DNA of 64,000 nucleotides, taken from sequence record OR644643.1; one strand, given 5' to 3'. A program made the translations under genes and the position numbers. Below the pieces are notes generated by a model, which saw only the letters and a program-made list of their open reading frames with translations, did not search any database and was not told the DNA's origin. Below are positions 1 through 27,301 of this stretch, piece after piece. Each line of letters begins with the position of its first letter. The stretch's first letter is position 1. Origin of the DNA: Klebsiella phage NU-KP11.

Positions 1-425
1 ATAACGGTGTTCGTCAATGGTCGCCTCCCCAGAAAAAATGGGTAACGCCTAAGTACGGTTCACCACGTAACGATCTGCGATACAAAAATATCAAAGGCGA
101 TAAAAAAGATAGTATCGCTTGCATTAAAATTAGAAATGATTATATTGTGACGAAGGTTGAAGGTGAACGCGCCCCAGCGGTAAAATCCTCTGAGTTAGAG
201 GCATGGCTGGAGGCAGACGATCCTACAACATTGATGACCCCTGAATGGGCCGCACGTTACAAAGAAAATGAGGAACTACGCGATTTCGAATTTATACCAA
301 AAGATATTGAAAATTCGATTATTGAAGCGTATAATACTCCAAAATCCGGAAGTAAAGCCAAAATGGAACGTTACTTCATGGATAACAAACTTTCCCGTAT
401 GTTCGAAAAACTGAGTGATTTTTGA
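1..425 (+). CDS. rnh: RNase H (T4 rnh-like 5'-3' exonuclease), C-terminal portion; gene starts upstream of window
   Basis: Frame 3 is open from the window edge. Translation KGDKKDSIACIKIRNDYIVTKVEGER...KMERYFMDNKLSRMFEKLSDF aligns with the C-terminus of T4 RNase H. It is followed by dsbA-33-59-32 as in T4. Confidence 0.7.
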   Translation, partial: NGVRQWSPPQKKWVTPKYGSPRNDLRYKNIKGDKKDSIACIKIRNDYIVTKVEGERAPAVKSSELEAWLEADDPTTLMTPEWAARYKENEELRDFEFIPKDIENSIIEAYNTPKSGSKAKMERYFMDNKLSRMFEKLSDF

Positions 426-434
426 GGTAACAAA

Positions 435-698
435 ATGAGTGTAGAATTTTTACAAACAAACCCTGATGTAGCAAAACAGGTAAAAGAACTGATCAAAGAA
501 GCATCCAACGTGAAAACTCAAGTTGAGATCTTCAACGGCACGTTCAAGGATATCAAATCCAAAGCAAAAACTGATTTCGGTATCGATGGAAAAACCTTCG
601 GGAAACTGTTCAAACTGTATCACGAACAGGCCCGTACCGCTTTCGAAGAAGAAAACAACGAACTGATCGAACTGTATGATATGATCGATAAGGCGTAA
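435..698 (+). CDS. dsbA: dsDNA-binding protein DsbA (late transcription accessory)
   Basis: 87 aa. KTFGKLFKLYHEQARTAFEEENNELIELYD matches T4 DsbA (GKMFNRLLALYHKDN...ELYD). It sits between rnh and 33. Confidence 0.75.
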   Translation: MSVEFLQTNPDVAKQVKELIKEASNVKTQVEIFNGTFKDIKSKAKTDFGIDGKTFGKLFKLYHEQARTAFEEENNELIELYDMIDKA

Positions 699-701
699 AG
701 C

Positions 702-947
702 ATGATCGGAAATAAGACCGAAGTCGGTTTGTATATCGAAAATCTGGTTGCCTCTGAGGGGGCAACCTACATGGAAGCAACGCTACAATGGATGGATGAA
801 AATTCTATTGATTATGCGATGCTGAATAAAACGGTTCCTCGCGCGATCCTTGATAAGATTAGCGACGAAGCGATCAAAGGGAACATGCTTCGCCCATCGG
901 TTGCGCTTGAACATAGTTCATCAACCACTCTGGACGGCTTCATGTGA
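702..947 (+). CDS. 33: late transcription coactivator gp33
   Basis: 81 aa. YMEATLQWMDENSI and NMLRPSVA match T4 gp33 (YLEATTAFLEENSI, NLLRPSVV). Confidence 0.8.
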   Translation: MIGNKTEVGLYIENLVASEGATYMEATLQWMDENSIDYAMLNKTVPRAILDKISDEAIKGNMLRPSVALEHSSSTTLDGFM

Positions 948-1603
948 GATTCAAAGCTCCGTTTGCTGATAGCGAGGCGAATTCACGGCTTGTGCCTTTG
1001 TCTGTATACAAGTTATATCTGGCGATGAAAACTCATTTCCAGGGGCGTTTTGATGTCCTTCAATACAACTGGCAGATCAAAGTTAGTGAAAACGCCTTTA
1101 ACAAGCGAAAGGATAGATATTTCTTTGTAAAATTAGCTCAACGCTTTACATTCAAAGAAATCTATTTTATATTCCTCTCCAACTTCGTAGCCAATCCGGA
1201 TTTCTGGGTAGGCGATGTTGATGAAGATAGTATTGTCTTTTACAGGCAGTACATAGGAAAGTTACAAAGACTAGATAACGTGTTTGTGGATGACGTTAAA
1301 AACGTGTACGAATTCGCCAAAATGAAAGAGATCCCCGTGTCTCTGGTGTTCAAGTACAGCGAAAAATCATCAACGTCCTACATAAGCAAACTTGTCCTGT
1401 CAAATGTGATATCTTACGAATCGTTTTTGATTTTTGACTCATTTTTAGGTATCATAAATAAACACGATCAAGTAGCTGATGATATTATTTGGTCTGACTT
1501 TAGCATTAAGTTAAAGGCATACAGAAAAATATTTGACCTTACTGAAAAAGATATCATAAAATATCGAAACTTAATGAAACAAACGTTAATCAAACTAAAC
1601 TAA
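944..1603 (+). CDS. 59: gp59 helicase loader (gp41 loading protein)
   Basis: 219 aa. SVYKLYLAMK, YNWQIKVSENAFNKRKDRYFF, FIFLSNFVANPDFWVGD and IKLKAYRKIF match T4 gp59 throughout. The start is GTG at 944 overlapping the gp33 stop; the first in-frame ATG (1025) would remove conserved residues. Confidence 0.85.
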   Translation: MRFKAPFADSEANSRLVPLSVYKLYLAMKTHFQGRFDVLQYNWQIKVSENAFNKRKDRYFFVKLAQRFTFKEIYFIFLSNFVANPDFWVGDVDEDSIVFYRQYIGKLQRLDNVFVDDVKNVYEFAKMKEIPVSLVFKYSEKSSTSYISKLVLSNVISYESFLIFDSFLGIINKHDQVADDIIWSDFSIKLKAYRKIFDLTEKDIIKYRNLMKQTLIKLN

Positions 1604-1618
1604 ACGAGAAAACAGAAT

Positions 1619-2590
1619 ATGAGCAGCATTTTTAAACGTCAAGATCCCGCTAAACTCCAGGCACAGGTAGCAAATCTGAAAGGTGGTTCCGGCTTCCAGA
1701 AAGATGAGAAAGAATGGAAACTGACCCTGGACGCACAGAAAAACGGTTCCGCCGTTATTCGATTCCTCCCAGCACGTTCCGATGATGAACTGGCGTTCGT
1801 CCGTATCGTGAGCCACTCTTTCAAGAAAAACAACCAGTGGTATATTGAGAACTGTTCCTCTACCCACGGCGATTATGACGGCTGTCCTGCATGTAAGTAC
1901 ATTTCCGAAAACGATCTGTATGAGAAGGCTAAAGCCAACAAAAACGGGCCAGAAGATAAGCTACTGAGCCAGATCGGTCGTAAACAAAGTTTCTGGGCTA
2001 ACGTCCTGATCGTTAAAGACCCAGGCGCTCCAGAAAACGAAGGTAAGGTGTTCAAATACCGCTTCGGTAAGAAAATCATGGACAAGATCACCGCCGCAAT
2101 TAACGGTAATCCAGAACTTGATGAACCGGGTATTGCTGTAACCTGTCCGTTTGATGGTGCTAACTTCACCCTGAAAGCGAAAAAAGTTGGTGATTGGCCT
2201 AACTATGACGATAGCTCGTTTGGTGTTCCGGCTAAGATCAAAAACATCGACGATGAAGAAGTTCAGAAAGCAATTTTCGAAGGTATGAGCGATCTTCGCC
2301 CAATCACTGCCGAAAGCGAATTCAAACCGCTGGCTGACCTGACTACTCGCTTCAATAAAGTTATGGGTAGTTCGATTGGTTCTGCTGGTTCCAGCGCTTC
2401 CGCTGACCTTGATAGCGAACTGAGCAACTTCGATAACGAAATGGCTAAGTTTGACAATCAGACATCTGATGTGAAATCATCTGGTGGTGTTGCATCGGTT
2501 CCGGTAGGCGAAGATGACGGCGTACCGTTCGACCTGGATGATTCTGATAGCTCCGGTGATGACGACCTGGATAAACTGTTAGACATGTAA
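1619..2590 (+). CDS. 32: single-stranded DNA-binding protein gp32
   Basis: 323 aa. EWKLTLDAQKNGSAVIRFLPA, YIENCSSTHGDYD, KDPGAPENEGKVFKYRFGKKI and an acidic Ser/Asp-rich C-tail match T4 gp32. Confidence 0.95.
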   Translation: MSSIFKRQDPAKLQAQVANLKGGSGFQKDEKEWKLTLDAQKNGSAVIRFLPARSDDELAFVRIVSHSFKKNNQWYIENCSSTHGDYDGCPACKYISENDLYEKAKANKNGPEDKLLSQIGRKQSFWANVLIVKDPGAPENEGKVFKYRFGKKIMDKITAAINGNPELDEPGIAVTCPFDGANFTLKAKKVGDWPNYDDSSFGVPAKIKNIDDEEVQKAIFEGMSDLRPITAESEFKPLADLTTRFNKVMGSSIGSAGSSASADLDSELSNFDNEMAKFDNQTSDVKSSGGVASVPVGEDDGVPFDLDDSDSSGDDDLDKLLDM

Positions 2591-2595
2591 TACAA

Positions 2596-2616
2596 GCGGG
2601 GGCTTCGGCCCCCACT
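2596..2616 (+). terminator. UUCG-tetraloop GC hairpin after gene 32
   Basis: gcgggggcttcggcccccac directly after the stop; weak U-tract. Confidence 0.45.
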
Positions 2617-2645
2617 CAAAGAATTCTAAGTTAGAGAAGAAATAT

Positions 2646-2915
2646 ATGAATGAAAGTAATGTTTTTGTTGACTACATGAACCGCGTCCGTAAATCTTGGG
2701 TTGCTAAACTCTCGGACGAAACAAAAGAACTGTTTAAAGCTATGCCTCAAGAGGAACGTTTTAAACACTATCGTGACATTGATGAAAAAGTGGTTGCGGA
2801 ACATCGTAAACTTACCAGCGAACGCCGCGAAGATCCGAAGCGTACAACCGTTAAAGAAATGGCTGATATGCTTGACACAGCAGCGGAAACCGTTGTAAAA
2901 TCACTTATTAAGTAA
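2646..2915 (+). CDS. hypothetical protein (89 aa) between genes 32 and 45
   Basis: ORF with an RBS-like gagaagaaatat upstream. No recognisable family. Confidence 0.5.
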   Translation: MNESNVFVDYMNRVRKSWVAKLSDETKELFKAMPQEERFKHYRDIDEKVVAEHRKLTSERREDPKRTTVKEMADMLDTAAETVVKSLIK

Positions 2916-2941
2916 CACTTATTGAAAACTAAAGGCTGAAT

Positions 2942-3607
2942 ATGAAATTCTCTAAACAAACTATTGATATCCTGAAAAACTTTTCTCAAATCAACTCTTC
3001 GATCATGCTGACCAAAGGTTCATTCATCATGACGAAATCAATCAACAGCGTTGTATACGCAGAAGCTGAAATTGCTGATGTGATTGATGAAGATGTTGGT
3101 ATCTACGATCTCAACTCATTCCTGAACATGCTGAACATCGTCGGCACTGACGCGGAAATCACTCATGATATTTCCACTGGTGAAATCGTGATTCGCGGCG
3201 ACAAGATGAAGATCATCGAACGTTCAGCAGACGCAACAACGATCCCGAAACCGAAAAAACGTCTGGTGATGCCAGTAGCAGATCTGATTTTCCAGATTAC
3301 CGCTAACGATTTCGAAAAACTGATCAAAGCGTCTCGCATGATGAAACTGACCGACCTGTCCGTTGAACCGATTGATGGTAAACTGGTCATCACCGCGAAA
3401 AGCAAAGAAAGTCAATCAACTTTCTCCGTTGAAGTCGGTGAGTATGAAGGCGACAATGTTTTCAATTTCGATATGAAGATTGATAACATGCAGTTCATCA
3501 ACAGCGATTACAAAGTAGAGATTTCCTCCAAAGGGGCTGCAAAATTCTCTTCTGATAACGGCGTTGCTTACGTCGTTGTACTTGAAGCAAGTAGCACATT
3601 CAAGTAA
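2942..3607 (+). CDS. 45: sliding clamp gp45
   Basis: 221 aa. MKFSKQTIDILKNFSQINSSIML, DVGIYDLNSFL, GEYEGDNVFNF and KGAAKFSSDNG...VVVLEASS match T4 gp45. Confidence 0.93.
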   Translation: MKFSKQTIDILKNFSQINSSIMLTKGSFIMTKSINSVVYAEAEIADVIDEDVGIYDLNSFLNMLNIVGTDAEITHDISTGEIVIRGDKMKIIERSADATTIPKPKKRLVMPVADLIFQITANDFEKLIKASRMMKLTDLSVEPIDGKLVITAKSKESQSTFSVEVGEYEGDNVFNFDMKIDNMQFINSDYKVEISSKGAAKFSSDNGVAYVVVLEASSTFK

Positions 3608-3616
3608 GATAGTTTT

Positions 3617-3641
3617 AAGGGGCTACGGCCCCTTTCTTTTA
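3617..3641 (+). terminator. rho-independent terminator after gene 45
   Basis: aaggggctacggcccctttctttt. Confidence 0.6.
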
Positions 3642-3665
3642 CACCATTTATTTTGAAGGTATATT

Positions 3666-4664
3666 ATGGAACTTAGTGAAAATATTGAAATCATCGAAAC
3701 CAAATACGGTAAAATCTCCCGATCTCCTGATGAATTTGCATGGGATCAGCGCTATCGCCCAACAACGATTGAAGAGTGTATTTTACCTTCTGGTGACAAA
3801 GCCGCTATGCGGGGCATAATCAAATCTGGGCGTGTTGAGAACATGACCCTTGTATCTGATTCCCCTGGCACTGGTAAAACGACCCTCGCGCTTGTGTTGG
3901 CCCGTGAGGTTGATGCTGAGGTGTTCTTTGTCAACGGTTCGAACTGTGGTGTAAACTTCATTCGTAATGAACTGGATCGTTTTGCTTCATCAATGACGCA
4001 GAAACCAGGCGGAAAGATCATCATCATTGATGAATTCGATCGTTCTGGTATGGCGGAAGCACAGAAACACTTGCGTAGCTTTATCGAAGCATACAGTAAA
4101 AACGTTTCTGTTATTGTAACAGCGAACAACATTAACGGTGTGCATAGTGCTCTGCTTTCTCGTTGCCCTCCTGTTAAATTCGGTGTTCCGTCTGATGCTG
4201 AACGTATCGAACTGATGAAACAGTTAATCAAGCGTTGTTTCGGTATCCTTGAAATCGAGAATATCAAGTATGATCCTAAAGTCATTGCAGCGTTTGTTAA
4301 AGAGCATTATCCGGATGCGCGTTCTATTATCAAAGCGATCGGGTTCTACTCGAAACGTGGTGAAATTGATGCGGGGATCCTAAATGAGATCGTTGGTTCT
4401 GATGTGTCTCATATCATTACCCTGTTGAAAGAAAAGAACTATAAAGGGTTGCGCTCTGAGGTTATTAAATATGCGTCAGAATACGATACCTTTATCGGAA
4501 AATTGACTGATACGATTTACCCTATCGTGAATCAGGATTCGAAAATCGCACTGATCCAGATTGTAGGCGAAAACAACGCGCAATACGGGCTGGCAATGAA
4601 TAAAGAAATTCATCTGCAATATCTGTTGATGAACCTGATGCTTTCTATGGTCTGGGAGGCGTAA
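3666..4664 (+). CDS. 44: clamp loader large subunit gp44 (AAA+)
   Basis: 332 aa. Walker A SPGTGKTT and Walker B IIIDEFD. Position 45-44-62-regA-43 as in T4. Confidence 0.9.
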   Translation: MELSENIEIIETKYGKISRSPDEFAWDQRYRPTTIEECILPSGDKAAMRGIIKSGRVENMTLVSDSPGTGKTTLALVLAREVDAEVFFVNGSNCGVNFIRNELDRFASSMTQKPGGKIIIIDEFDRSGMAEAQKHLRSFIEAYSKNVSVIVTANNINGVHSALLSRCPPVKFGVPSDAERIELMKQLIKRCFGILEIENIKYDPKVIAAFVKEHYPDARSIIKAIGFYSKRGEIDAGILNEIVGSDVSHIITLLKEKNYKGLRSEVIKYASEYDTFIGKLTDTIYPIVNQDSKIALIQIVGENNAQYGLAMNKEIHLQYLLMNLMLSMVWEA

Positions 4665-4666
4665 TC

Positions 4667-5230
4667 ATGAGCCTGGCGGAATTTCTGGATGAAGAAGAGT
4701 TATCCCCGCATGAATCCGCTTGGCTTTCTAAAGATTGGGATAAGGTTGAAGAACTGGTCAAAGAGTACGGCAAGGATAAAGAAAACACCTTGTTTAACAT
4801 CATAGACGAAATCAACAACGGTAAAACGCCGTTGGTTATCGATGAAGTGTATGATAAGTACTTTGTAGACAACGCAATGAGCCAGCACATAGACACGATA
4901 TACAACGCGTATGTGATGAATCTGGTAGGCGGTAGTATCTCTGACCAAATGCACTATAACTATTATCTCAACTCTGTTAGGAAGGCTAAACGCTTCGGTG
5001 CATGGGCTAAACTATCGGAAGATTTTGAAGAGAAAATTATTATCGAAATCCTTCGCGAAAAATACAGTGTAAATACACGTACAGCGATGGAATATTTGCA
5101 GGAACTTAAAGACCTCGGAATGTTCGAGGATTGGAAAAGAAAACACGCAAAGGTCGCTCTGTCTTTGTTGGGTATTGTGAAAAACAAAGCTGAACAAAAG
5201 AAATTGGAAAAATTGATTAAACAATGGTGA
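4667..5230 (+). CDS. 62: clamp loader small subunit gp62
   Basis: 187 aa ORF whose ATGA start overlaps the gp44 stop. Syntenic position between 44 and regA. Confidence 0.75.
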   Translation: MSLAEFLDEEELSPHESAWLSKDWDKVEELVKEYGKDKENTLFNIIDEINNGKTPLVIDEVYDKYFVDNAMSQHIDTIYNAYVMNLVGGSISDQMHYNYYLNSVRKAKRFGAWAKLSEDFEEKIIIEILREKYSVNTRTAMEYLQELKDLGMFEDWKRKHAKVALSLLGIVKNKAEQKKLEKLIKQW

Positions 5231-5233
5231 TGT

Positions 5234-5596
5234 ATGTTAGAAATTCAACTAATCAGCGACGATTCTTTTTTAAAGATCCGTGAAACGCTAACCCGTATTG
5301 GTATTGCAAACAACAAAAAGAAAATGCTCTGGCAATCGTGCCACATTCTGAAAAAGCAAGGTAAGTATTTTATCGTGCATTTTAAAGAACTGTTGAAACT
5401 CGATGGTCGTCAAGTCGATATGACGGAAGAAGACGAACTACGCCGGAACAACATTGCGCGACTTCTCGAAGAGTGGGGCATGGTTAAGATCGTAACCCCT
5501 GGGTTGAAGTTTGCAGAAGAAAACAACTTCCGCGTACTGACTCACTCGCAAAAAGCAGATTGGATCCTCAAGTACAAGTACCGGATCGGTCACTAA
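5234..5596 (+). CDS. regA: translational repressor RegA
   Basis: 120 aa. FLKIRETLTRIGIANNKKKMLWQSCHILKKQGKYFIVHFKELLKLDGRQVDMTEEDE and NNFRVLTH match T4 RegA almost collinearly. Confidence 0.93.
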   Translation: MLEIQLISDDSFLKIRETLTRIGIANNKKKMLWQSCHILKKQGKYFIVHFKELLKLDGRQVDMTEEDELRRNNIARLLEEWGMVKIVTPGLKFAEENNFRVLTHSQKADWILKYKYRIGH

Positions 5597-5600
5597 TCAA

Positions 5601-5636
5601 AAAGCCCTTGCATTCTTGCAGGGGCTTTGTTATATT
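5601..5636 (+). promoter_or_regulatory. fused terminator hairpin / sigma70-like early promoter module
   Basis: aaagcccttgcattcttgcaggggctttgttatatt. The -35 TTGCAT lies inside the hairpin, then a 17-nt spacer and extended -10 TGtTATATT. Confidence 0.6.
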
Positions 5637-5664
5637 GGGTGTACACCATTGAGAGGGATATATT

Positions 5665-5952
5665 ATGACTATTAACGAAATCATGGATTCAATCAAATCC
5701 AACGAAACTTTGATCATCCCGATTGTAAAAGATGACATCTTGTTATCGTTAACTTGCAATCTGTCAGATACCCGCACTTACAGCTATGCACAACACTACT
5801 TTCCTGGATTTTACGATCGTAACATTTCAGAGTACACGTTGTTATGCAATCAAGTTGAAACCACTCATTTCTATGAGCGTATTAAAAAATCTCTGGACTT
5901 GATCCAACAAGCAAAAGAAGTCTTTATGAAAAGAATGGAGGACGCGCAATGA
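5665..5952 (+). CDS. hypothetical protein (95 aa)
   Basis: ORF preceded by the promoter module at 5601-5636 and an RBS gagagggatat. Confidence 0.5.
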   Translation: MTINEIMDSIKSNETLIIPIVKDDILLSLTCNLSDTRTYSYAQHYFPGFYDRNISEYTLLCNQVETTHFYERIKKSLDLIQQAKEVFMKRMEDAQ

Positions 5953-6278
5953 TCCGCACTTACATGAATAAAATTTTCGCGGCCCGTATGGATAACGTTA
6001 TTGATCAACGTGCTTATGATGATCTGGTTTCCCTTGCAACCTGTCAACTGGATGAACATACAGTAACGGAAAGGAAACTACTGGTTAACAAAGCTATCAT
6101 GATGGTTAATCAGGGCATTGCAGAAGCAAAATATCATAGTATCAATTCCAGTATTTTTAGCATGTTATTCGACGGGTTTAAACTTGAACGCCAGCTTGTT
6201 CAACTGAGAAAGATCCGTGACTTGTTAGCAGAAGGTTTGTTGGTTTTAGAACATCGAGTAAACTTGAATTTGCTGTAG
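5949..6278 (+). CDS. hypothetical protein (109 aa)
   Basis: ORF whose ATGA start overlaps the upstream stop. Confidence 0.45.
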   Translation: MIRTYMNKIFAARMDNVIDQRAYDDLVSLATCQLDEHTVTERKLLVNKAIMMVNQGIAEAKYHSINSSIFSMLFDGFKLERQLVQLRKIRDLLAEGLLVLEHRVNLNLL

Positions 6279-6324
6279 GTGGTGTTACAATGGAACATTA
6301 TATTAATGGAGAAGACAAGATCCA

Positions 6325-9024
6325 ATGAATGAATTTTACCTATCAGTTGAACAAATGGGAGATACCATTTATGAGCGCTTCGTTGACTCTAACGGCACCG
6401 AACAGGTACGTAAGACGAAATATGCGCCCGTAATGTATCAACACGCTATGAATGGCGTAGAAACCCCATACAAAGACATTTACGGCAAGCCTTGCCTCAA
6501 AAAACAGTTTGACAGCATCAAAGAAGCTAAAAATTGGATGCAGCGTATGCGCGATGTTGGGATGGAAGCGCTAGGTATGGACGATTACCGACTGGCTTAC
6601 ATTTCTGACATGTACCGGAATGAAATCGAATACAACCGCGAACACATTCGCATTGCTTCTATCGATATCGAGGTGACCGCTCCAGAATTTCCGGATCCGC
6701 GTGAAGCAAAATATCCAATCGATGCGATCACCCATTACGATAGCATTGAAGATAAATTCTATGTATACGATCTGGTTGAGGGTGGCCTTGCGGAATGGTG
6801 CGCGGCAAACGTTGATCGCAAAGACATTAGCGAAGAAGATTTAAACAAAATTGTTTATCGGTCTTTCCAGACCGAGAAGTCGTTATTGTCTGCGTATATC
6901 AAAGATTGGAAAGAGCGAACCCCTGTTATTGTAACCGGATGGAACTCTGACAAATTCGATATTGCATATATCATCACGCGATACCTGAACATTTTCGGTC
7001 AAAACGTGGTAAGGCATTTTAGCCCGTTTGGTAAAGTAACCGCCAGAACCACTACTGACGCTTACGGCAACGAACAATTAGGATATGATATTTCCGGCGT
7101 TGCTCAAATGGATGGTATGGCGCTGTATAAGAAATTCAGCTTTACCCCGCAACCGTCTTACCGTCTGGACGCGATCGCGGAATACGAAACTGGTAAAAAT
7201 AAAGTTGAGTATGAAGGTTCCCTGTCTGAACTACGCCAGCGCGATCACCAACTGTACATCACGTACAACATTGTTGACGTTATCCGCGTACTTGATATCG
7301 ACGGTAAACGAAACTTTATTGAACTGGTTCTGTCTGTAGCGTACTATGCAAAAATTAACTTCCCAGGGGTTATGTCTCCGCTGAAAACGTGGGACGCGAT
7401 CATTTATAACTCTCTGCGTGAAGATAAGGTTGTTATTCCGGAAAACAGACGCCATACTAAAACCCCTTACCCTGGGGCATTTGTGAAGGATCCGGTTCCT
7501 GGGCCTTACAAATACATGGTATCGTTTGACTTAACAAGCCTGTACCCTTCCATCATCCGACAGGTGAATATAAGCCCTGAAACGATTATGGGAAGTTTTG
7601 CGGTACGTGCTCTTGAAGAGTATATTAATAAGACCGCGCCGCGCCCTAGCGATGAATTTAGCTGTTCTCCTAACGGGTGGATGTTCCGCCGTGATATCAA
7701 AGGCGTGATCCCAGTAGAGATCAAGAAAGTATTTGATCAGCGTAAGATGTGGAAAAAACGAATGATGGCGGGTGAGCGAAATCTTGAACTCATCAAGCAC
7801 GAACTCGAACACTTAACAGACGCGCATAACCAAATGGTTGATCCTGACTTTGATTTCTATACAGATTTCAGTGATGAATCTAAAGCAGTTCTGAAAACTC
7901 TTACAAAACAAATGCTTAAAGCAGTTAAGCGCGTATGTGAGAAGAAGATCGCACAAGCGAACACAGCACAACTTAACCGTAAGATTTCTATCAACTCCCT
8001 TTATGGTGCGTTGGGTAATGAACACTTCCGATACTTCGATCTACGAAACGCCAGCGCGATCACCATGTTCGGGCAGTTGGCTATCCAGTGGATTGAACGT
8101 AAGGTAAACGAATACCTTAACGACCTGTGCGGTACTACGGATCATGCATATGTGCGGTACTGTGATACTGACTCAATTTATGTTTGCATGGATAACGTGA
8201 TTGCAAAAGTTGGTGGTGAGGCTAAATTTAAGGATAATAACCATTGGGTTGACTTCCTGGATCGCTTTGCTAAAGAAAGAATGGAACCGATGATCGATAA
8301 AGGGTATCGTGAACTTTGCGAATACATGAACAACGTAGAACACCTGATGTTTATGGATCGTGAAATCATTTCTGGGCCTCCGTTGGGTTCCGAAGGGTTG
8401 GGAAGTTTCTGGACTGCTAAAAAACGATATGCGGCTAACGTGTGGGACTCCGAAGGAACCCGCTATGAAAAACCGAAACTGAAAATCATGGGTATGGAAA
8501 CACAGCGATCGAGTACTCCGACCTCTGTGAAAGTATTCCTGAAAGAAGCGATCCGCCGTATCCTGCAAGAAGGTGAATTATCTTTGCACGAACATTATAA
8601 AAAGTTCGAAGAAGAATATAAGGCACTTGACTACAGGGAAATTGCTGGTGTATCATCTGCCAACAACATTTCGAAATATCGTGATGGGGCTGGCTATCCA
8701 ATCAAGGGAACACCAAACCATATTAAAGGGGTGTTGTTCTTTAACCGTTTCACTGCTGGTATTGATGGTGTTACACCAATCATGGAAGGTGAAAAGGTAA
8801 TGGTTCTACCACTAAGGGATAAAAACCCGTGGCAAGCCGATTGCATCGCGTGGCAATCCGGAAATAAACTACCGTCAGAGATCGAAAGTGATATTCTGGC
8901 ATGGGTAGATTATCCGGGTATGTTTGAAAAACATGTTATTAGTCCATTGACTAATATCACGGAAGTATGTAAAATTGATTATGAAAAACGTGCCAGTTTA
9001 AACGATCTGTTCGGTGACTGGTAA
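6325..9024 (+). CDS. 43: DNA polymerase gp43 (family B)
   Basis: 899 aa. Exo motifs IASIDIEV and YNIVDV; polymerase motifs DLTSLYPSII, KISINSLYG and YCDTDS. Confidence 0.95.
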   Translation: MNEFYLSVEQMGDTIYERFVDSNGTEQVRKTKYAPVMYQHAMNGVETPYKDIYGKPCLKKQFDSIKEAKNWMQRMRDVGMEALGMDDYRLAYISDMYRNEIEYNREHIRIASIDIEVTAPEFPDPREAKYPIDAITHYDSIEDKFYVYDLVEGGLAEWCAANVDRKDISEEDLNKIVYRSFQTEKSLLSAYIKDWKERTPVIVTGWNSDKFDIAYIITRYLNIFGQNVVRHFSPFGKVTARTTTDAYGNEQLGYDISGVAQMDGMALYKKFSFTPQPSYRLDAIAEYETGKNKVEYEGSLSELRQRDHQLYITYNIVDVIRVLDIDGKRNFIELVLSVAYYAKINFPGVMSPLKTWDAIIYNSLREDKVVIPENRRHTKTPYPGAFVKDPVPGPYKYMVSFDLTSLYPSIIRQVNISPETIMGSFAVRALEEYINKTAPRPSDEFSCSPNGWMFRRDIKGVIPVEIKKVFDQRKMWKKRMMAGERNLELIKHELEHLTDAHNQMVDPDFDFYTDFSDESKAVLKTLTKQMLKAVKRVCEKKIAQANTAQLNRKISINSLYGALGNEHFRYFDLRNASAITMFGQLAIQWIERKVNEYLNDLCGTTDHAYVRYCDTDSIYVCMDNVIAKVGGEAKFKDNNHWVDFLDRFAKERMEPMIDKGYRELCEYMNNVEHLMFMDREIISGPPLGSEGLGSFWTAKKRYAANVWDSEGTRYEKPKLKIMGMETQRSSTPTSVKVFLKEAIRRILQEGELSLHEHYKKFEEEYKALDYREIAGVSSANNISKYRDGAGYPIKGTPNHIKGVLFFNRFTAGIDGVTPIMEGEKVMVLPLRDKNPWQADCIAWQSGNKLPSEIESDILAWVDYPGMFEKHVISPLTNITEVCKIDYEKRASLNDLFGDW

Positions 9025-9028
9025 ACTC

Positions 9029-9047
9029 TAGGGGCTTCGGCCCCTTT
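9029..9047 (+). terminator. terminator hairpin after gene 43
   Basis: taggggcttcggccccttt. Confidence 0.6.
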
Positions 9048-9098
9048 CATTAACTAGTGAGATATATAGAATGAGAATGAATAAATCGGAAAAATTAA

Positions 9099-10256
9099 AT
9101 GTCAAACAAAGCACTACTAAAAAAACTGATCAAAAACTCGAATAGCCAAACTGCATCTGTACTTTCTGAAAGCGACGTATTCAACAATATTACCATCACG
9201 CGAACCCGTGTGCCGATTCTGAATCTGGCGTTGTCCGGTGCGTTTAACGGTGGCCTAACTTCTGGTCTTACCCTTTTCGCTGGCCCGTCCAAACACTTCA
9301 AATCCAACTTGGGTTTGCTGACTGTAGCGGCTTATCTCAAAACGTATGAAGATGCTGTGTGCCTGTTCTACGATTCAGAAAAAGGTGTTACTAAATCCTA
9401 TCTGAAATCAATGGGTGTTGATCCGGATCGTGTTGTGTATACTCGTATCACGACGGTCGAGCAGTTGCGTAATGACGTTGTAAGCCAGCTTAACGCGCTT
9501 GAACGCGGTGATAAGGTGATTGTATTCGTTGACTCAGTAGGCAACACGGCAAGTAAAAAAGAACTTGCTGACGCGCTGTCTGATAACGATAAACAGGATA
9601 TGACGCGAGCAAAAGCATTAAAAGGTATGTTCCGTATGGTTACGCCTTATCTGGCTGACCTGGATATCCCGATGGTTTGTATCTGTCATACCTATGACAC
9701 ACAAGAAATGTACAGCAAGAAAGTTATTTCCGGTGGTACTGGTTTAATGTATTCCGCTGATACTGCGATCATCCTGGGTAAACAACAGGTGAAAGAAGGT
9801 ACTGAGGTAGTGGGTTATGATTTCATCATGAACATCGAAAAATCTCGATTCGTGAAAGAGAAATCAAAATTCCCGCTGCATGTTACCTATGAAGGCGGTA
9901 TTAGTATGTATTCTGGCCTTCTGGATCTGGCAATGGAAATGAACTTTGTACAGACCGTAACCAAAGGCTGGCGCAACCGTGCTTTCCTGAATACCGAGAC
10001 TGGCGAACTCGAAGTTGAAGAAAAGAAATGGCGTGAGTCAGAAACAAATAGCGTTGAATTCTGGCGTCCTCTGTTTACTCATCAACCATTCTTGAAAGCT
10101 ATCGAAGAAAAGTATAAGATCCCTGATCGTGAAATCAGTGATGGTTCCGCGCTGGAAGATTTATACAGCACTGATAGCATCCCAGATCCTGATCTGGATG
10201 ATGACGATATCCCAGAATCATTTGATGATATCGAAGAAGACAACGAAATTTTATAA
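9099..10256 (+). CDS. uvsX: UvsX RecA-like recombinase
   Basis: 385 aa. PILNLALSGAFNGGLTSGLTLFAGPSKHFKSN, CLFYDSE, ICHTYDTQEMYSK and GGTGLMYSADT match T4 UvsX. Confidence 0.95.
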   Translation: MSNKALLKKLIKNSNSQTASVLSESDVFNNITITRTRVPILNLALSGAFNGGLTSGLTLFAGPSKHFKSNLGLLTVAAYLKTYEDAVCLFYDSEKGVTKSYLKSMGVDPDRVVYTRITTVEQLRNDVVSQLNALERGDKVIVFVDSVGNTASKKELADALSDNDKQDMTRAKALKGMFRMVTPYLADLDIPMVCICHTYDTQEMYSKKVISGGTGLMYSADTAIILGKQQVKEGTEVVGYDFIMNIEKSRFVKEKSKFPLHVTYEGGISMYSGLLDLAMEMNFVQTVTKGWRNRAFLNTETGELEVEEKKWRESETNSVEFWRPLFTHQPFLKAIEEKYKIPDREISDGSALEDLYSTDSIPDPDLDDDDIPESFDDIEEDNEIL

Positions 10257-10259
10257 AAT

Positions 10260-10277
10260 ATGGGGCTTCGGCCCCAT
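10260..10277 (+). terminator. hairpin after uvsX
   Basis: atggggcttcggccccat. Confidence 0.5.
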
Positions 10278-10291
10278 AACCGAGGCAATGT

Positions 10292-10612
10292 ATGGATATC
10301 GAGAGCAAAGCAAAGAATTATATTGATGAAGCGATGAAAGATGTTATTCAGGAACTTCTGATTAACGATGAAAAAGGTGTTGCGCATCTGGTTTATATTC
10401 ATAAGGTGTTTTGGGATCATGGTCTGAAAGTAGAATTCAGTACCCCAGACGAAGACAAAGAAGCGTTGATCCCGCTGGTGCATGATGCAATTTATGCACA
10501 GATTAAAGAGCTTGAAAAGGGTTCAGTTGTCCCAAAGCCTAAGCTGACATTATGGGATGTATTCAAACAAAAGGTTTACAACTTTTTCATGATGTTCAGC
10601 AACCTGGTATAA
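10292..10612 (+). CDS. hypothetical protein (106 aa) in the gene-40 position between uvsX and 41
   Basis: ORF with an RBS gaggcaatgt. I could not confirm homology to T4 gp40 from memory. Confidence 0.5.
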   Translation: MDIESKAKNYIDEAMKDVIQELLINDEKGVAHLVYIHKVFWDHGLKVEFSTPDEDKEALIPLVHDAIYAQIKELEKGSVVPKPKLTLWDVFKQKVYNFFMMFSNLV

Positions 10613-10621
10613 GGCAATACA

Positions 10622-12058
10622 ATGATCGTTGATACAATATTTTCTAACCTGATTTATAACGGGACATATTTTGTCCAAGCATGGCCCCATCTGAAAAAGG
10701 AATATTTCGAAGGCAATGCACAAGTTTTGTTTGACCTCATTGATAAACATGTACAGGAATTCAACGGCATTCCGTCAAAAACTGCTTTAGAGGTTGCGCT
10801 TGACAAACGAAATCTAAGTGATGTAGTCTACGAAGACACGAAAAAGGCGATTCAGTCGCTGAAAAATGCGCCAGAAGATTTAGATTGGCTAATGAAGGAA
10901 ACGGAAACATATTGCAAAGATAAAGCAATGTATCGTGCTCTTTCTCGTGCAATCGAAATCCAGGCGAACGCAGAAAAACCACTGGCAGAACAAAACAAGA
11001 AACTTCCTGGTGTTGGGGCTATCCCTGAAATCATGGAGGAAGCATTAGCAATTTCATTCGATAGTTCAGTAGGTCATGACTATTTCGAAGATTATGAAAA
11101 ACGGTGGATGCTTTACCAATCGAAGGCGATGAAAATTCCGTTTGGTATCCCGATCCTGAACGCAATCACCAAAGGCGGCGCGGAACGTGGTACACTGAAT
11201 ATCATCATGGCTGGTGTTAACGTTGGTAAATCACTGGGCTTATGTTCTCTTGCGGCTGATTATCTGCAACAGGGTAAAAACGTTCTTTACATTTCTATGG
11301 AAATGGCAGAGCATGTTTGCTCTAAGCGTATCGATGCTAACCTTCTTGATGTGACTATGGATGACATCGACGAAGGGAACATTACATACGCAGACTATAA
11401 GAACAAAATGGAGCGCCTTAAAGCGGGTAAGGTTGGGCGTTTGGTGGTCAAGCAGTACCCTACATCGGGTGCGGGTGCAAACCACTTTAGAGCGCTTGTG
11501 AAAGAGCTTAAATTGAAGAAACAGTTTGTGCCGGATGTGATCATTGTCGATTACCTGGGGATCTGTACTTCAACCCGCGTTAAAGGTGCTGAAAATACCT
11601 ATATTCTGGTTAAAGCAATTGCCGAAGAACTACGCGGTCTTGCTGTTGAAACTAATACCGTAATGTGGACAGGCGCACAGGTTGGGCGTTCTGCATGGGA
11701 TAGTTCGGATGTGAGTATGGGTGATGTTGCGGAATCCGCTGGTTTACCTGCTACGGCTGATTTTATGTTAGCTGTAATCGAGACGGAAGAGTTAGCTGAT
11801 CAGGGTATGCAACTGTTCAAGCAAATCAAATCCCGTTATGGCGATAAGAACACTTTCAACAAGTTCAAGTTGGAAGTTCGCAAGGGTAATCAGCGCTGGA
11901 TGGATACCGACAACAGCGAATACGGGTTTAAATCTGACTACCACGGCAACACTATGCCTAAAACAGTAGAACAGACACAAGGCCCGATGATTAAACAGGC
12001 TGAATCTACCAGACGTGAAAAAATGGCACAGATTGCAAAATCTGACATTCAATTTTAA
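10622..12058 (+). CDS. 41: replicative DNA helicase gp41 (DnaB-like)
   Basis: 478 aa. Walker A GVNVGKS and Walker B IIVDYLG. Position uvsX-40-41 as in T4. Confidence 0.92.
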   Translation: MIVDTIFSNLIYNGTYFVQAWPHLKKEYFEGNAQVLFDLIDKHVQEFNGIPSKTALEVALDKRNLSDVVYEDTKKAIQSLKNAPEDLDWLMKETETYCKDKAMYRALSRAIEIQANAEKPLAEQNKKLPGVGAIPEIMEEALAISFDSSVGHDYFEDYEKRWMLYQSKAMKIPFGIPILNAITKGGAERGTLNIIMAGVNVGKSLGLCSLAADYLQQGKNVLYISMEMAEHVCSKRIDANLLDVTMDDIDEGNITYADYKNKMERLKAGKVGRLVVKQYPTSGAGANHFRALVKELKLKKQFVPDVIIVDYLGICTSTRVKGAENTYILVKAIAEELRGLAVETNTVMWTGAQVGRSAWDSSDVSMGDVAESAGLPATADFMLAVIETEELADQGMQLFKQIKSRYGDKNTFNKFKLEVRKGNQRWMDTDNSEYGFKSDYHGNTMPKTVEQTQGPMIKQAESTRREKMAQIAKSDIQF

Positions 12059-12063
12059 TTGAC

Positions 12064-12080
12064 TGGGGCGAATAGCCCCA
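12064..12080 (+). terminator. hairpin after gene 41
   Basis: tggggcgaatagcccca. Confidence 0.45.
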
Positions 12081-12101
12081 TAAAGAATGTAAGGTAATGA
12101 A

Positions 12102-12371
12102 ATGACTAAGACTATAACGATTCCGATTCCGGCTATCAAACTGCTGACTGGACTAACTCTGATTTTTGCAGCCGCTAAAGTGTTTGGCTTCTCGCAAATG
12201 TCATGGTTCTGGGTTCTCTTCCCAGTTCTATTACCCGTCTACATTGTTGTAGGCGTTGTGTTGGTGGGTATTGCGATCTATCTGCTGTTCTCACTGATTT
12301 CCAGTGACAAGGCCGAAGATATGTATCGCTGGGTAAAAGCCAAATACGAAAAATTTTTCAAAAAATCGTAA
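12102..12371 (+). CDS. small membrane protein (2 predicted TM helices)
   Basis: 89 aa with hydrophobic segments LLTGLTLIFAAA and VLFPVLLPVYIVVGVVLVGIAIYLLF. Confidence 0.55.
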   Translation: MTKTITIPIPAIKLLTGLTLIFAAAKVFGFSQMSWFWVLFPVLLPVYIVVGVVLVGIAIYLLFSLISSDKAEDMYRWVKAKYEKFFKKS

Positions 12372-12450
12372 AAAGGTATTGACCTGAATCTCCATTGTGG
12401 TAATATAACTCACGTAGACAAGATACTGAGTTAAACAAAGGAGATTCAAA

Positions 12451-12705
12451 ATGAACGTATTCAACAACCCTTACAACGAAATGCTGAACCCGAATGTTGA
12501 TTTCAGCGATGGTTATTTTGACGCAATCGTAAACAGCATCAAAAACAAAGGTTTACTGTTAGCGATGCTGGAAAAAGGTAAAGATGACGTTGAAGGAAGT
12601 GTTGATTTCCTCTGGAACTTCCTCCCTATCGAACCTGGTTTCAAAGTTGGTTGTAATGAGGAACAAGCGAAAAACGTTCTTCGGTATCTCATCAATAACG
12701 CATAA
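12451..12705 (+). CDS. hypothetical acidic protein (84 aa)
   Basis: Preceded by an extended -10 promoter (ttgacc...tggtaatat) and an RBS aaaggagattcaaa. Confidence 0.55.
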   Translation: MNVFNNPYNEMLNPNVDFSDGYFDAIVNSIKNKGLLLAMLEKGKDDVEGSVDFLWNFLPIEPGFKVGCNEEQAKNVLRYLINNA

Positions 12706-12711
12706 AAAATT

Positions 12712-12733
12712 AAGCCCCGAAAGGGGCTTTTTT
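12712..12733 (+). terminator. rho-independent terminator
   Basis: aagccccgaaaggggctttttt. Confidence 0.7.
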
Positions 12734-12797
12734 GTATCTGTAGGTATTGCATTCTTTCGCAAAAGATGATACCTTAATCATAACAAAGGAGGACATT

Positions 12798-13034
12798 ATG
12801 AAAATCGCATTCGTTATCACTTTCTTACTTGCAGCACTCAACATCGTAACTGGTAATTCTTTTAGTTGGTGGGTGGTGGCAATGCCTTACATTTTCGTGT
12901 ATAGCAAAATCATGGTGATTGCTGGCGTGAATCTTGTCCTTGCTATCTTACTATTTGTATTCGCCGCCCTGAATGGTGAAGCAGGTTCTACCTGGAAAGC
13001 CATGAAAGAGGGTGTTAAAGAGGGTTTGAAATGA
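12798..13034 (+). CDS. small membrane protein (78 aa, 2 TM)
   Basis: RBS aaggagg 7 nt before the ATG at 12798. Hydrophobic IAFVITFLLAALNIV and IMVIAGVNLVLAILLFVFAAL. Confidence 0.6.
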   Translation: MKIAFVITFLLAALNIVTGNSFSWWVVAMPYIFVYSKIMVIAGVNLVLAILLFVFAALNGEAGSTWKAMKEGVKEGLK

Positions 13035-13420
13035 ATATTGATTTTTGTAAGGCTGAAATAAAAGCGGATATGGACGAAAAAGAACCGAAGTTCGATAGTC
13101 CTCACAGTTCGCGCTGGATCGTAGCTGTTGACGATGAAGGTTATGTTACGGTATTATCTCGACCATTCATTCATGATGCATTCTTTGAATGTGGACGCAG
13201 CGCGGAAGATATCGGGCTTCCTGATTCTATCGAAATGCCTCCGGGTGTGTATGAATGGATCTGTGGTTTTGAACAAACTACTGACTGGGAAACCGGATAC
13301 GTGGACGGATGGGAATTCTATCCGAATGAAACAACATTATTGTATAGCTGGGACAATGGCAAAGTTAACGAAAGCGGAAACCAAGAAGCACAATCAGATA
13401 ATGGATCTGGTTCACTCTGA
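13031..13420 (+). CDS. hypothetical protein (129 aa)
   Basis: ORF whose ATGA start overlaps the upstream stop. Its C-terminal end overlaps the methyltransferase start. Confidence 0.5.
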   Translation: MNIDFCKAEIKADMDEKEPKFDSPHSSRWIVAVDDEGYVTVLSRPFIHDAFFECGRSAEDIGLPDSIEMPPGVYEWICGFEQTTDWETGYVDGWEFYPNETTLLYSWDNGKVNESGNQEAQSDNGSGSL

Positions 13421-14132
13421 CAAAGCGCTAACTTACGAAGAGAAGTTGTTCATCATTGAAAACTTTCATGAAGGCGCGTTTACAAATAATTCCGAATTAG
13501 GGGCGTTCTTTACCCCTATTGGACTTGCTCGCGATTTCACAATCGATGCTTGCACAGGTGGAAGTGTTATTGACCTGTGTGCTGGTATCGGTGGGTTATC
13601 TTTCGCTATGGTTCATTACATGATGTACAATACACCGCGTGAAATCGTCTGTGTTGAGTTAAATCACACATACTATGAGTTAGGTAAGCGTATCGTACCA
13701 GAAGCCTCCTGGGTGCATGGAGACGCCTTAACAACTGAATTTAATCAGGTGTTTGATATGGCGATCAGTAACCCGCCTTTTGGTAAAATCAAAACCTCTG
13801 ATTTTAAGGGTAAGTATACAGGGGCAGAATTTGAGTATAAAGTAATCGAACGTGCATCACAGATCGCGCGTCAGGGAACTTTTATAATCCCTCAAATGTC
13901 TGCAAATTTCCGGTATTCGAAAGCCCATTGTTTCCGACAAGATGACAGCACAACATCAAGTAAATGTAAAAAGTTTCTTGATGAAACTGGCCTTGTTATG
14001 AATCCTGGATGCGGTATAGATACTGGGTATTACCTGGAGGATTGGAAAGGGGTTAAACCACTATGCGAGGTTGTTTGTATGGAGTTTGAACCCGAAACCA
14101 AATCTGATTTATTCACTTTCACAATAGAGTAA
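13356..14132 (+). CDS. N6-adenine DNA methyltransferase, NPPF type (motif I then motif IV; gamma-class-like), orphan
   Basis: Motif I VIDLCAGIGGLS and motif IV ISNPPFGKIK. The start is uncertain: ATG 13356 or 13401. The track ORF begins at 13128, but its first 76 codons overlap the upstream gene. Confidence 0.75.
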   Translation: MAKLTKAETKKHNQIMDLVHSDKALTYEEKLFIIENFHEGAFTNNSELGAFFTPIGLARDFTIDACTGGSVIDLCAGIGGLSFAMVHYMMYNTPREIVCVELNHTYYELGKRIVPEASWVHGDALTTEFNQVFDMAISNPPFGKIKTSDFKGKYTGAEFEYKVIERASQIARQGTFIIPQMSANFRYSKAHCFRQDDSTTSSKCKKFLDETGLVMNPGCGIDTGYYLEDWKGVKPLCEVVCMEFEPETKSDLFTFTIE

Positions 14133-14137
14133 TAATC

Positions 14138-14626
14138 ATGAGTGATCAATTAGTTAAAAATATGGATTTAACATATAGCGTCCGGATGATCCGGCTACTC
14201 AAAAAGCCCTGGACTGAATGGACTGCTTACAAACTGGGGATCCTTGATGGACAAGGCGAAGTAATTCGCAACCCCAAAACAAAAGAAGAGTTAGAAGCGT
14301 ATTCTCCTTTTCATCGTTCAGTACGCCATATCAAGCGTAGAATGAATTCTGTTCCGTATATGACTGGGTTTATGAACCTAACCAGTTCATATGATACCCT
14401 ACGCAATCGCTACAATCTGACAGAACAAGAGCATGAAGAAATCATGTTGAACGTTCCACGCCTCAAAGAATATTATGATAAGGGGCGCATGTTAGAGGAT
14501 ATGGTCGCGGGTGATTCTGGCGGCGATACAGAAAAGATTGCTTCTGGTGTGACTACTGGAGCAGTAACCAACATCGGGCCGAAAGTATTAGGCGTTACCC
14601 GTGCAGGGAAAAGGAAAAAGAAATGA
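14138..14626 (+). CDS. hypothetical protein (162 aa), basic C-terminus
   Basis: ORF directly downstream of the MTase. No family recognised. Confidence 0.5.
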   Translation: MSDQLVKNMDLTYSVRMIRLLKKPWTEWTAYKLGILDGQGEVIRNPKTKEELEAYSPFHRSVRHIKRRMNSVPYMTGFMNLTSSYDTLRNRYNLTEQEHEEIMLNVPRLKEYYDKGRMLEDMVAGDSGGDTEKIASGVTTGAVTNIGPKVLGVTRAGKRKKK

Positions 14627-14841
14627 TAATTCCTCCGCTGAATATCACTATCTGGGCTACTGCTAACGATTATACATGGTTTCCAATTTGTATCATGTAT
14701 ATGAGTGACAACGCGACCGTTTATCAGAATCGTCGAAAAGGTTCTGATAAAATTGATATTGCAATAAATTATTCGTTTAAACAGGCATTTCGTGGTTGGA
14801 AGTTAATGCTTGACGGAACAGAAAAGCAAGTAAGTTCTTGA
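14623..14841 (+). CDS. hypothetical small protein (72 aa), weak
   Basis: ORF with an ATGA overlap. Low-complexity composition, so it may be non-coding. Confidence 0.3.
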   Translation: MIIPPLNITIWATANDYTWFPICIMYMSDNATVYQNRRKGSDKIDIAINYSFKQAFRGWKLMLDGTEKQVSS

Positions 14842-14866
14842 CAGAAAAATCCTCTTAGTCTATGAT
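14838..14866 (+). promoter_or_regulatory. sigma70-like promoter upstream of DksA-like gene
   Basis: TTGACA, 17 nt, TATGAT. Confidence 0.55.
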
Positions 14867-14896
14867 ATTGAAATCATTTGATTAGGAGGATTTACA

Positions 14897-15157
14897 ATGG
14901 CGGTTGGATTTGGCCCTGCTGACGGTGTTCAAGATACCATTCAGGCAACAATAGACAATGCGATAGATTTTGCACGTTCTCAAATCAGAAACGGAGAATC
15001 ATTAACGCATTGTTTTGATTGTGGGGATCCGATACCCGAAAAGCGTAGGGCTATCGTGAAGGGTTGCCGTTATTGTATTGAATGCCAAAAAGAACATGAC
15101 GAAATGATCAGCGCCGGGTATAATCGACGAGGATCGAAAGATAGTCAACTGAGGTAG
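14897..15157 (+). CDS. DksA/TraR-family C4 zinc-finger protein
   Basis: 86 aa. CFDCGDPIPEKRRAIVKGCRYCIECQ is the typical TraR/DksA C4 finger. Preceded by the promoter TTGACA-17-TATGAT and an RBS aggagg. Confidence 0.7.
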   Translation: MAVGFGPADGVQDTIQATIDNAIDFARSQIRNGESLTHCFDCGDPIPEKRRAIVKGCRYCIECQKEHDEMISAGYNRRGSKDSQLR

Positions 15158-15159
15158 AA

Positions 15160-16185: not shown

Positions 16186-16192
16186 GATTGAT

Positions 16193-16729: not shown

Positions 16730-16914
16730 TGGATCCGATCATCGCGCTATTAGCTGTTGGGGTTCTTTCTTATGGTGTTTGCGCGATGATCACATATCTT
16801 TTCGGTTGGTGTGTGTTTCACGTAAATGGCGTTGAAAGAAAACTTTTACTGATTATACTATCAGTGTTTTGGTTTGTTGGAATATTCTACGTTTGTTATG
16901 AGGGGCGAGAATGA
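16729..16914 (+). CDS. small membrane protein (61 aa)
   Basis: Two hydrophobic segments. ATGA overlap with gene 56. Confidence 0.5.
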   Translation: MDPIIALLAVGVLSYGVCAMITYLFGWCVFHVNGVERKLLLIILSVFWFVGIFYVCYEGRE

Positions 16915-24001: not shown

Positions 24002-24045
24002 CATAGAACCCTATATAATGTCAGTGATTAAACAAAGAGGTGAAT

Positions 24046-27271: not shown

Positions 27272-27301
27272 GGTTTTGTACCAAGCAAAGGAGATTCTAA
27301 A

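Follow-up and report, generated by a model that had tools for sequence, protein, structure and literature searches.

An RB43-type arrangement of the replication genes in Klebsiella phage NU-KP11

Klebsiella phage NU-KP11 (sequence record OR644643.1; whole genome roughly 176 kb) carries a replication module whose gene order departs from that of T4. Here, we describe this module on the basis of a window of 64,000 nt, the whole stretch of DNA that was analysed, with the segment from gene 32 to uvsX (positions 1619-10256) as the starting point. We consider it very probable that NU-KP11 has a Slopekvirus genome (Straboviridae; KP15/PMBT1 group) of RB43-type topology, in which the layout was inherited and the DNA contains ordinary cytosine. 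The layout itself is already in the literature (2006 for RB43, 2010-2016 for KP15), which makes the present finding a rediscovery. Nolan 2006 described RB43 as the only phage breaking T4 synteny (PMC1524935), and Petrov 2010 introduced the term "RB43 type topology" for an arrangement that brings most replication genes together in a single sector and is shared by Klebsiella phage KP15 (PMC2993671). The placement outside the T-even phages, the cytosine DNA, and the gene order being all published, and with more than 100 near-identical genomes present in GenBank, little new knowledge is gained. The practical value lies in a correct annotation and in the placement of the window in Slopekvirus.

Shared gene order with RB43

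The order and orientation of the genes from rnh to rIIB are identical in the window and in Escherichia phage RB43 (NC_007023), which is grouped with RB16 in Pseudotevenvirus. The shared order starts with rnh, dsbA, 33, 59, 32, rpbA, 45, 44, 62, regA, an unnamed gene, 43, uvsX, 40, and 41 and continues with a methyltransferase gene, 61.1, 61, 56, dda, dexA, motB.2, 39.2, 60plus39, 52, two unnamed genes, rIIA, and rIIB. Forty-two open reading frames (ORFs) of the window match RB43 in strictly monotonic order (RB43 positions 32,495 down to 4), with protein identities of 34-94% overall and 72-94% for the replication proteins. Within this order, the rnh-dsbA-33-59-32 run lies directly upstream of, and is co-oriented with, rpbA-45-44-62-regA-43; the genes rnh, 59, 32, 45, 44, 62, 43, uvsX, 41, 61, dda, 39, and 52 are clustered on one strand in 1-27230; and the unsplit 60plus39 gene is followed by 52, upstream of rIIA. 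The same gene order is found in Buttiauxella phage GuL6 (Pseudotevenvirus), and the annotated gene order of the Slopekvirus relatives is also that of the window.

The 32|rpbA breakpoint aligns at the nucleotide level between the window, RB43, and GuL6, including a GC hairpin just past the gene 32 stop (GGGGC-UUCG-GCCCC, 2599-2612, + strand), the stem of which is kept in RB43 and GuL6, where the loop is GAAA. Because both the breakpoint and the hairpin align among the three phages, the junction points to one ancestral event. When the stretch 1900-3400 was used as query, 173 phage records matched it in one piece, whereas T-even, Acinetobacter, Aeromonas, and Vibrio phages matched the gene 32 or the gene 45 part only. 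We infer that the layout would have been handed down from the ancestor that Pseudotevenvirus and Slopekvirus share, with no recent event in NU-KP11. The alternative, that the arrangement arose recently in this one genome alone or through an assembly error, and is thereby a new departure from T4 synteny, can be given next to no probability: the same junctions are present in more than 110 Slopekvirus genomes that were sequenced independently (at least 95% identity) as well as in Pseudotevenvirus genomes (~72%), and the breakpoint can be aligned base for base with those of RB43 and GuL6.

The assignment to Slopekvirus, the genus (formerly Kp15virus) that holds the Klebsiella phages KP15, KP27, PMBT1, Matisse, and Miro, follows from nucleotide identity at the scale of the window. 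The ICTV threshold for a genus is ~70% nucleotide identity. PMBT1 (classified in Straboviridae; Slopekvirus) is 99.3% identical over 8.6 kb of the window, and Klebsiella phage phi1_146054 (PP889503, 175.7 kb), the relative used here for genome-wide statements, is 93-99% identical over most of the 64 kb. PP889503 is collinear with the window, and positions 1-35257 are 99.0% identical. A megablast search with 1619-10256 as query returned 84 records with at least 99% identity (99.3-99.5% for more than 80 Klebsiella phages) and 114 in which 80% or more of the query is matched; nearly all of the records are Klebsiella phages. KP15 is a founding member of "Kp15virus" (PMC5219037).

Gene identities were assigned from the ORF list with Pfam, PHROGs, NCBIfam, and tblastn against the complete T4 genome (NC_000866). 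The Pfam and tblastn results bear out the gene names and coordinates that the first-pass annotation, made from the sequence before any database search, had given for 1619-10256. A + strand run of ~31 kb, made up of early and middle genes, encodes nearly the whole replisome with its helpers from rnh through rIIB, and the core replication orthologues share 37-60% amino-acid identity with T4 (tblastn). All genes of this run named below lie on the + strand. The 3' part of rnh (RNase H, 1-425; T4 37%, E 1e-15; RB43 75%) runs off the window start, the frame being open from base 3, and is followed by dsbA (435-698; T4 46%, E 1e-16), gene 33 (late transcription co-activator, 702-947; T4 gp33 41%, E 6e-15), and gene 59 (helicase loader, 944-1603; T4 gp59 48%, E 4e-61). 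Gene 32, encoding the single-stranded DNA-binding protein, occupies 1619-2590 (Pfam gp32 2.4e-51; T4 54%). It had been described as followed within 350 bp by 45-44-62-regA-43; this order holds, but the 351 bp that separate 32 from 45 contain rpbA (RNA polymerase-binding protein, 2646-2915; Pfam Phage_RpbA 3.5e-12; phrog_7151 1.4e-46). Next come gene 45 (sliding clamp, 2942-3607; Pfam gp45-slide_C 1.7e-22; T4 42%), gene 44 (clamp loader large subunit, 3666-4664; Pfam Gp44_C and Gp44_lid; T4 47%), gene 62 (clamp loader small subunit, 4667-5230; Pfam Phage_clamp_A 3.8e-29), and regA (translational repressor, 5234-5596; Pfam Translat_reg 5.4e-54).

Two small ORFs that had been overlooked lie between regA and 43: one at 5665-5952 (phrog_7277), which is 48% identical to RB43ORF039c, and one at 5949-6278 (phrog_17868 in PHROGs), for which no homologue was found in RB43 or T4. 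Neither of them has a Pfam match, and both belong to PHROGs families without an assigned function. Gene 43, encoding the family B DNA polymerase, is unsplit (6325-9024; Pfam DNA_pol_B and exo1; T4 53%, RB43 89%). As the first-pass annotation had stated, no gene separates it from uvsX (RecA-like recombinase, 9099-10256; Pfam T4_UVSX_C 4.7e-25; T4 52%), although a 74-bp spacer with a hairpin does. Further along are gene 40 (10292-10612; T4 gp40 37%) and gene 41 (replicative helicase, 10622-12058; T4 60%), after which several small ORFs, the methyltransferase gene (13356-14132), and a 61.1-like ORF lead to gene 61 (primase, 15160-16185; T4 52%). The gene 56 homologue (dCTPase/dUTPase family, 16193-16729; T4 gp56 47%, E 2e-47; phrog_173) was identified by PHROGs and the T4 comparison only, as was a second MazG-like ORF, neither having a match in NCBIfam or Pfam.

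The run continues with the dda helicase (17198-18526; T4 44%) and the dexA exonuclease (19141-19812; T4 45%), followed by motB.2-like and 39.2-like ORFs. The large subunit of topoisomerase II is encoded by one unsplit, full GyrB-like ORF (24040-25944; NCBIfam gyrB 6e-59), in which tblastn places T4 gp39 at 24136-25530 and gp60 at 25525-25914. Gene 52 (medium subunit, GyrA-like, 25944-27230; T4 gp52 44%; also NCBIfam) directly follows. The claim that 39 is fused with 60 and abuts 52 is thus upheld, while the rIIA and rIIB genes, said to abut as well, come only after a SprT-like protein (27248-27856; Pfam SprT-like 1e-13) and one small ORF. The SprT-like ORF has a metalloprotease domain, and its counterpart in PP889503 carries the label 'DNA helicase', probably in error. 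The rIIA (28107-30368; T4 38%) and rIIB (30359-31267; T4 40%) genes are separate ORFs with a 10-nt overlap, and the RB43 record contains a single fused rIIA-rIIB coding sequence of 3150 nt. They are followed by ndd (31662-32099).

DNA chemistry and restriction sites

T4 has a full glucosyl-hydroxymethylcytosine (hmC) system. When gp42, a-gt, b-gt, alc, denB, arn, and imm of T4 were run as tblastn queries (E up to 1) against both the window and the whole PP889503 genome, none of them gave a meaningful match. The lone gp42 match in PP889503 is the paralogue td (thymidylate synthase; 23% identity, E 7e-5), and nothing below E 0.1 was found for gene 42 in the window. Alpha-, beta-, and beta-alpha-glucosyltransferases gave no tblastn match below E 0.08, alc gave none at E up to 1, and the best matches of denB and arn in the window and PP889503 had E values of 0.28 and 0.60, respectively. 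Pfam scans of the larger unassigned ORFs of the window also revealed no glycosyltransferase or thymidylate-synthase-like domain. These results agree with previous work on the relatives: KP15 and KP27 have Dam and Dcm genes and no hydroxymethyltransferase or glycosyltransferase genes (PMC3620542, PMC5219037), the absence of the latter having been reported from PSI-BLAST and HMMER searches (PMC5219037). Moreover, EcoRI, EcoRV, NsiI, SnaBI, and DpnI all cut KP15 DNA, and only EcoRII is blocked (PMC3620542, PMC5219037). The suggestion of the first-pass annotation that NU-KP11 does not make glucosylated hmC DNA at this locus is therefore in line with both the searches and the KP15 digests, which already supply, for the genus, the restriction experiment that the annotation had proposed, and the gene content indicates that the phage probably lacks a hydroxymethylcytosine or glucosylation pathway.

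It could be argued that the hmC and glucosylation genes have merely moved elsewhere in the genome, so that the DNA would still be hmC-modified. A gp56 homologue is indeed present in the window, homologues of gp1 (33% identity), cd, and denA are found in PP889503 (together with 56, frd, 46, 47, and 55), and the T4 alpha-gt gene also lies outside the 43-uvsX interval. Nevertheless, tblastn of the whole PP889503 genome yielded the td paralogue only, and gene 56 is annotated in RB43 and RB49, which are without most genes for non-canonical bases (PMC12115623); because these two phages carry and have kept it, gene 56 is not diagnostic for hmC. The gene absences in KP15 and KP27 and the cutting of KP15 DNA by several enzymes (PMC5219037, PMC3620542) argue in the same direction, as does the palindrome count, 19 of the 64 palindromic hexamers being absent genome-wide in PP889503 compared with 1 of 64 in T4. 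A relocated hmC pathway is thus extremely unlikely.

The avoidance of palindromes is pronounced in the window, from which 25 of the 64 palindromic hexamers are wholly missing, each being expected 5-20 times. For the 19 palindromes missing from the whole PP889503 genome, 15-55 occurrences each would be expected, and among the non-palindromic hexamers the corresponding count is 38 of 4032. The same avoidance is seen in RB43 and RB49 (1-40 kb). The sites missing from the window include those of HindIII, NcoI, SphI, PstI, SalI, KpnI, SacI, XhoI, XbaI, AflII, and PvuII, and those not avoided include GATC-containing sites and the EcoRI and EcoRV sites. As palindromes are heavily avoided here and not in T4, the DNA appears to be restriction sensitive; such avoidance is what would be expected of DNA exposed to type II restriction, and not of glucosyl-hmC DNA. 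In the proposed mechanism, the phage would replicate ordinary cytosine DNA, and protection would be provided by phage Dam and Dcm methylation together with the strong avoidance of palindromic restriction sites. For practical work, this means that NU-KP11 DNA should be clonable and should be cut by enzymes whose sites remain.

Several points weigh against a reading in which an inherited RB43-type layout is combined with ordinary cytosine DNA. Near-identical relatives, and not the 64-kb window, are the source for the divergent 55-47-46 block and for gene 42 being missing genome-wide, and the polarity of the rearrangements, that is, whether the T4-type or the RB43-type order is ancestral, is a proposal only. 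Hairpins of the GGGGC-UUCG-GCCCC type, such as the one at the 32|rpbA junction, are probably transcript 3' ends, stabilisers, or attenuators, a role assigned by analogy. Finally, the DNA of KP27 was reported to resist EcoRI, NsiI, SnaBI, and DpnI despite the presence of their sites (PMC3620542), so that some members of the group may carry a further modification.

The KP27 result bears on another explanation, namely that the DNA carries a different modification, as proposed for KP27, which is perhaps encoded in or near the module, for example by the methyltransferase gene at 13356-14132 (+ strand) and the flanking small ORFs. This gene, which lies between 41 and 61, encodes an S-adenosylmethionine-dependent amino-methyltransferase, in which motif I reads VIDLCAGIGG and motif IV reads NPPF, and belongs to phrog_3820 (1e-128). 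It has weak Pfam matches to MTS and N6_Mtase, a sub-threshold match to PrmC as its only NCBIfam result, and no relative in a sequence search of the PDB. The resistance of KP27 DNA to the four enzymes (PMC3620542), the amino-methyltransferase motifs in a protein without a solved relative, and its conservation in RB43 (84% identity to RB43ORF030c) would all fit such a modification. However, KP15 has the same genes and yet digestible DNA, and methylase genes are not correlated with resistance (PMC5219037). The strong palindrome avoidance speaks for a general exposure of the DNA to restriction, the KP27 resistance could in our view be an artefact of DNA preparation, and a modification of this kind would have no bearing on the synteny finding. 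We therefore regard it as unlikely. Somewhat less likely again is the broader proposal that some Slopekviruses carry an undescribed modification without an hmC pathway and that the 13356-14132 enzyme might be involved, for example as a broad-specificity adenine/cytosine-N4 methylase at the replication fork. The methyltransferase is distinct from the T4-type Dam encoded at 53966-54817 (- strand), and three 'DNA methyltransferase' genes are annotated in the PP889503 record.

The reading of NU-KP11 as a cytosine-DNA phage of RB43-type layout also has a bearing on phage therapy, as a greater risk of generalised transduction has been linked to missing denB and alc genes (PMC12115623). The window is without denB and alc, like RB43 and RB49.

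Hairpins, expression signals, and other loci

Intercistronic C(UUCG)G hairpins are present in T4. The window contains five copies of the very stable GGGGC-UUCG-GCCCC type (0 expected by chance), all of which are intergenic and on the coding strand. Besides the copy after gene 32, these are found between 45 and 44 (3619-3632, + strand; with a UACG loop and a downstream T-run), in the spacer of 74 bp between 43 and uvsX (9031-9044, + strand; likewise with a downstream T-run), after uvsX (10262-10275, + strand), and at 35804-35817 (- strand). In addition, a terminator-like hairpin with a 12-bp stem follows regA (5601-5628, + strand), where the intergenic fold has a predicted energy of -24.8 kcal/mol. 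The terminator scan, which returned 21 sites compared with 14 +/- 4 in shuffles, overlooked the hairpins after 32 and 43; these came to light when the intergenic gaps were folded and when the pattern itself was searched for. If these hairpins act on the transcript, they would split the array into the units rnh-32, rpbA-45, 44-62-regA, orfA-orfB-43, and uvsX.

Other expression signals were less informative. The sigma-70 promoter scan of 1-16500 returned 48 sites compared with 39 +/- 6 in shuffles and is uninformative, and the T4 late-promoter motif TATAAATA has 2 matches in the 64 kb (~4 expected), none of which lies in 1619-10256. No tblastn match at E up to 1 was obtained for T4 motA, asiA, modA, and modB in PP889503 and the window, and the best match of T4 alt in the same sequences (E 0.39) is not meaningful. 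The control of middle-mode transcription may differ from that of T4. A Srd-like ORF is located at 59983-60507 (- strand).

The coding strand switches at ~34.5 kb, after which t, 38, 37, 36, 35, 34, nrdG, nrdD, 49, nrdC, dam, a NAMPT gene, and rnlB follow. Strong divergence from the otherwise 98-99% identical PP889503 is confined to 35257-39637 (- strand), with only a few small indels elsewhere. This is the distal tail-fibre/adhesin region, consisting of a gp37-like ORF of 1400 amino acids and a gp38-like ORF, and its single megablast match is a piece 581 bp long and 88.8% identical. The region looks like a host-range mosaic. Near the end of the window, an ORF of 279 amino acids (62701-63540, + strand) has a Zeta-toxin/P-loop kinase domain (Pfam 9.5e-8), while its counterpart in PP889503 is labelled 'portal protein'.

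Comparison with T4 and other relatives

The window keeps the order and orientation of T4 within sub-blocks (rpbA-45-44-62-regA-43; uvsX-40-41; and 61...56...dda...dexA...39) and differs in how these are joined. In T4 (Tequatrovirus), gene 32 is part of the run rnh-dsbA-33-59-segG-32-frd at 147-151 kb, in a separate sector from 45, and rpbA is preceded by 46 and 45.2; in the window, rnh-dsbA-33-59-32 is joined straight to rpbA-45. The distance of more than 100 kb between 32 and 45 quoted for T4 in the first-pass annotation is correct on the linear record (114 kb) but shrinks to ~54.6 kb along the shorter arc of the circular map. Gene 39 of T4 is split from 60 by mobA/60.1, and 52 lies beyond rIIB, denB, and ndd, whereas in the window there is one ORF with 52 beside it, giving the order GyrB-like then GyrA-like. 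The T4-type dam orthologue (T4 Dam 55%, E 1e-84; TIGR00571 3e-43) adjoins nrdC/49/nrdD on the opposite strand, whereas T4 dam is found at 16846-17625 in the 61-56 region; dam is beside nrdC in RB49 too. The window and PP889503 are without gene 42, the glucosyltransferases, alc, denB, and arn that belong to the T4 glucosyl-hmC system.

Beyond the window edge, the 55-47-46-45.2 block of PP889503 is inverted, diverges from rnh, and leads into frd-td-nrdA. The block analysis of PP889503 against T4 gives this inversion of 55-47-46-45.2 together with an inverted frd-td-nrdA...30 block, an inverted and moved nrdC-49-nrdD-nrdG block, an inverted uvsY-uvsW-hoc-rnlB block, and relocated dam and 52 genes. 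These several inversions and translocations confirm the placement outside classical T-even synteny. The whole-genome block analysis also rules out the idea that the rnh-32 block moved in one transposition. We propose that the rnh-to-32 block would have been put directly upstream of rpbA-45, that in exchange 55-47-46-45.2 would have been inverted and joined to frd-td-nrdA, and that gene 39 would never have been split by the T4-specific mobA/60 insertion.

The interval between 43 and uvsX (3.6 kb in T4 on NC_000866) contains five genes in T4, namely imm.1, imm, 42, b-gt, and segA, in agreement with what had been said of imm, gene 42, and beta-gt. It holds gene 42 only in 44RR, imm, 11 ORFs, and a homing endonuclease gene in Acinetobacter phage 133, and one 62-amino-acid ORF in RB49, and is empty in RB43, GuL6, and the window. 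Its content differing among these seven, the interval is a variable cargo slot, which is empty in NU-KP11. The module is shorter than that of T4 solely by the missing 43-uvsX cargo, and the apparent compaction reflects missing cargo genes and the relocated rnh-32 block. The description of the module as strongly compacted therefore holds relative to T4 only: neighbouring genes in 147-12058 overlap by at most 4 bp or lie at most 74 bp apart, and the coding fraction is 96.7%, which is normal for T4-type phages. Unusually dense gene packing is ruled out by this fraction and by the ordinary T4-type spacing.

The synteny comparison that had been proposed as a check was made with T4 and RB49 and, for the 43-uvsX interval, with 44RR and phage 133. 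RB49 (Krischvirus) resembles the window in that 39 is unsplit, 56 is present, and neither 42 nor b-gt lies between 43 and uvsX, but it keeps the T4 topology 47, 46, 45.2, rpbA, 45, with 32 not beside rpbA and 52 not beside 39. KVP40 has yet another topology (Petrov 2010, PMC2993671). The layout of the window is that of RB43, in which the genes beyond rnh likewise diverge (55, a-gt.5, a-gt.4, 47, 46, 45.2, ..., frd) and gene 42 and glucosyltransferase genes are also missing. The two phages differ in details: the window has one extra ORF before 43 (5949-6278), and both the homing endonuclease gene that RB43 carries between 61 and 56 and the RB43 denV gene are missing from it. RB43 has E. coli as host, whereas the phage studied here has Klebsiella.

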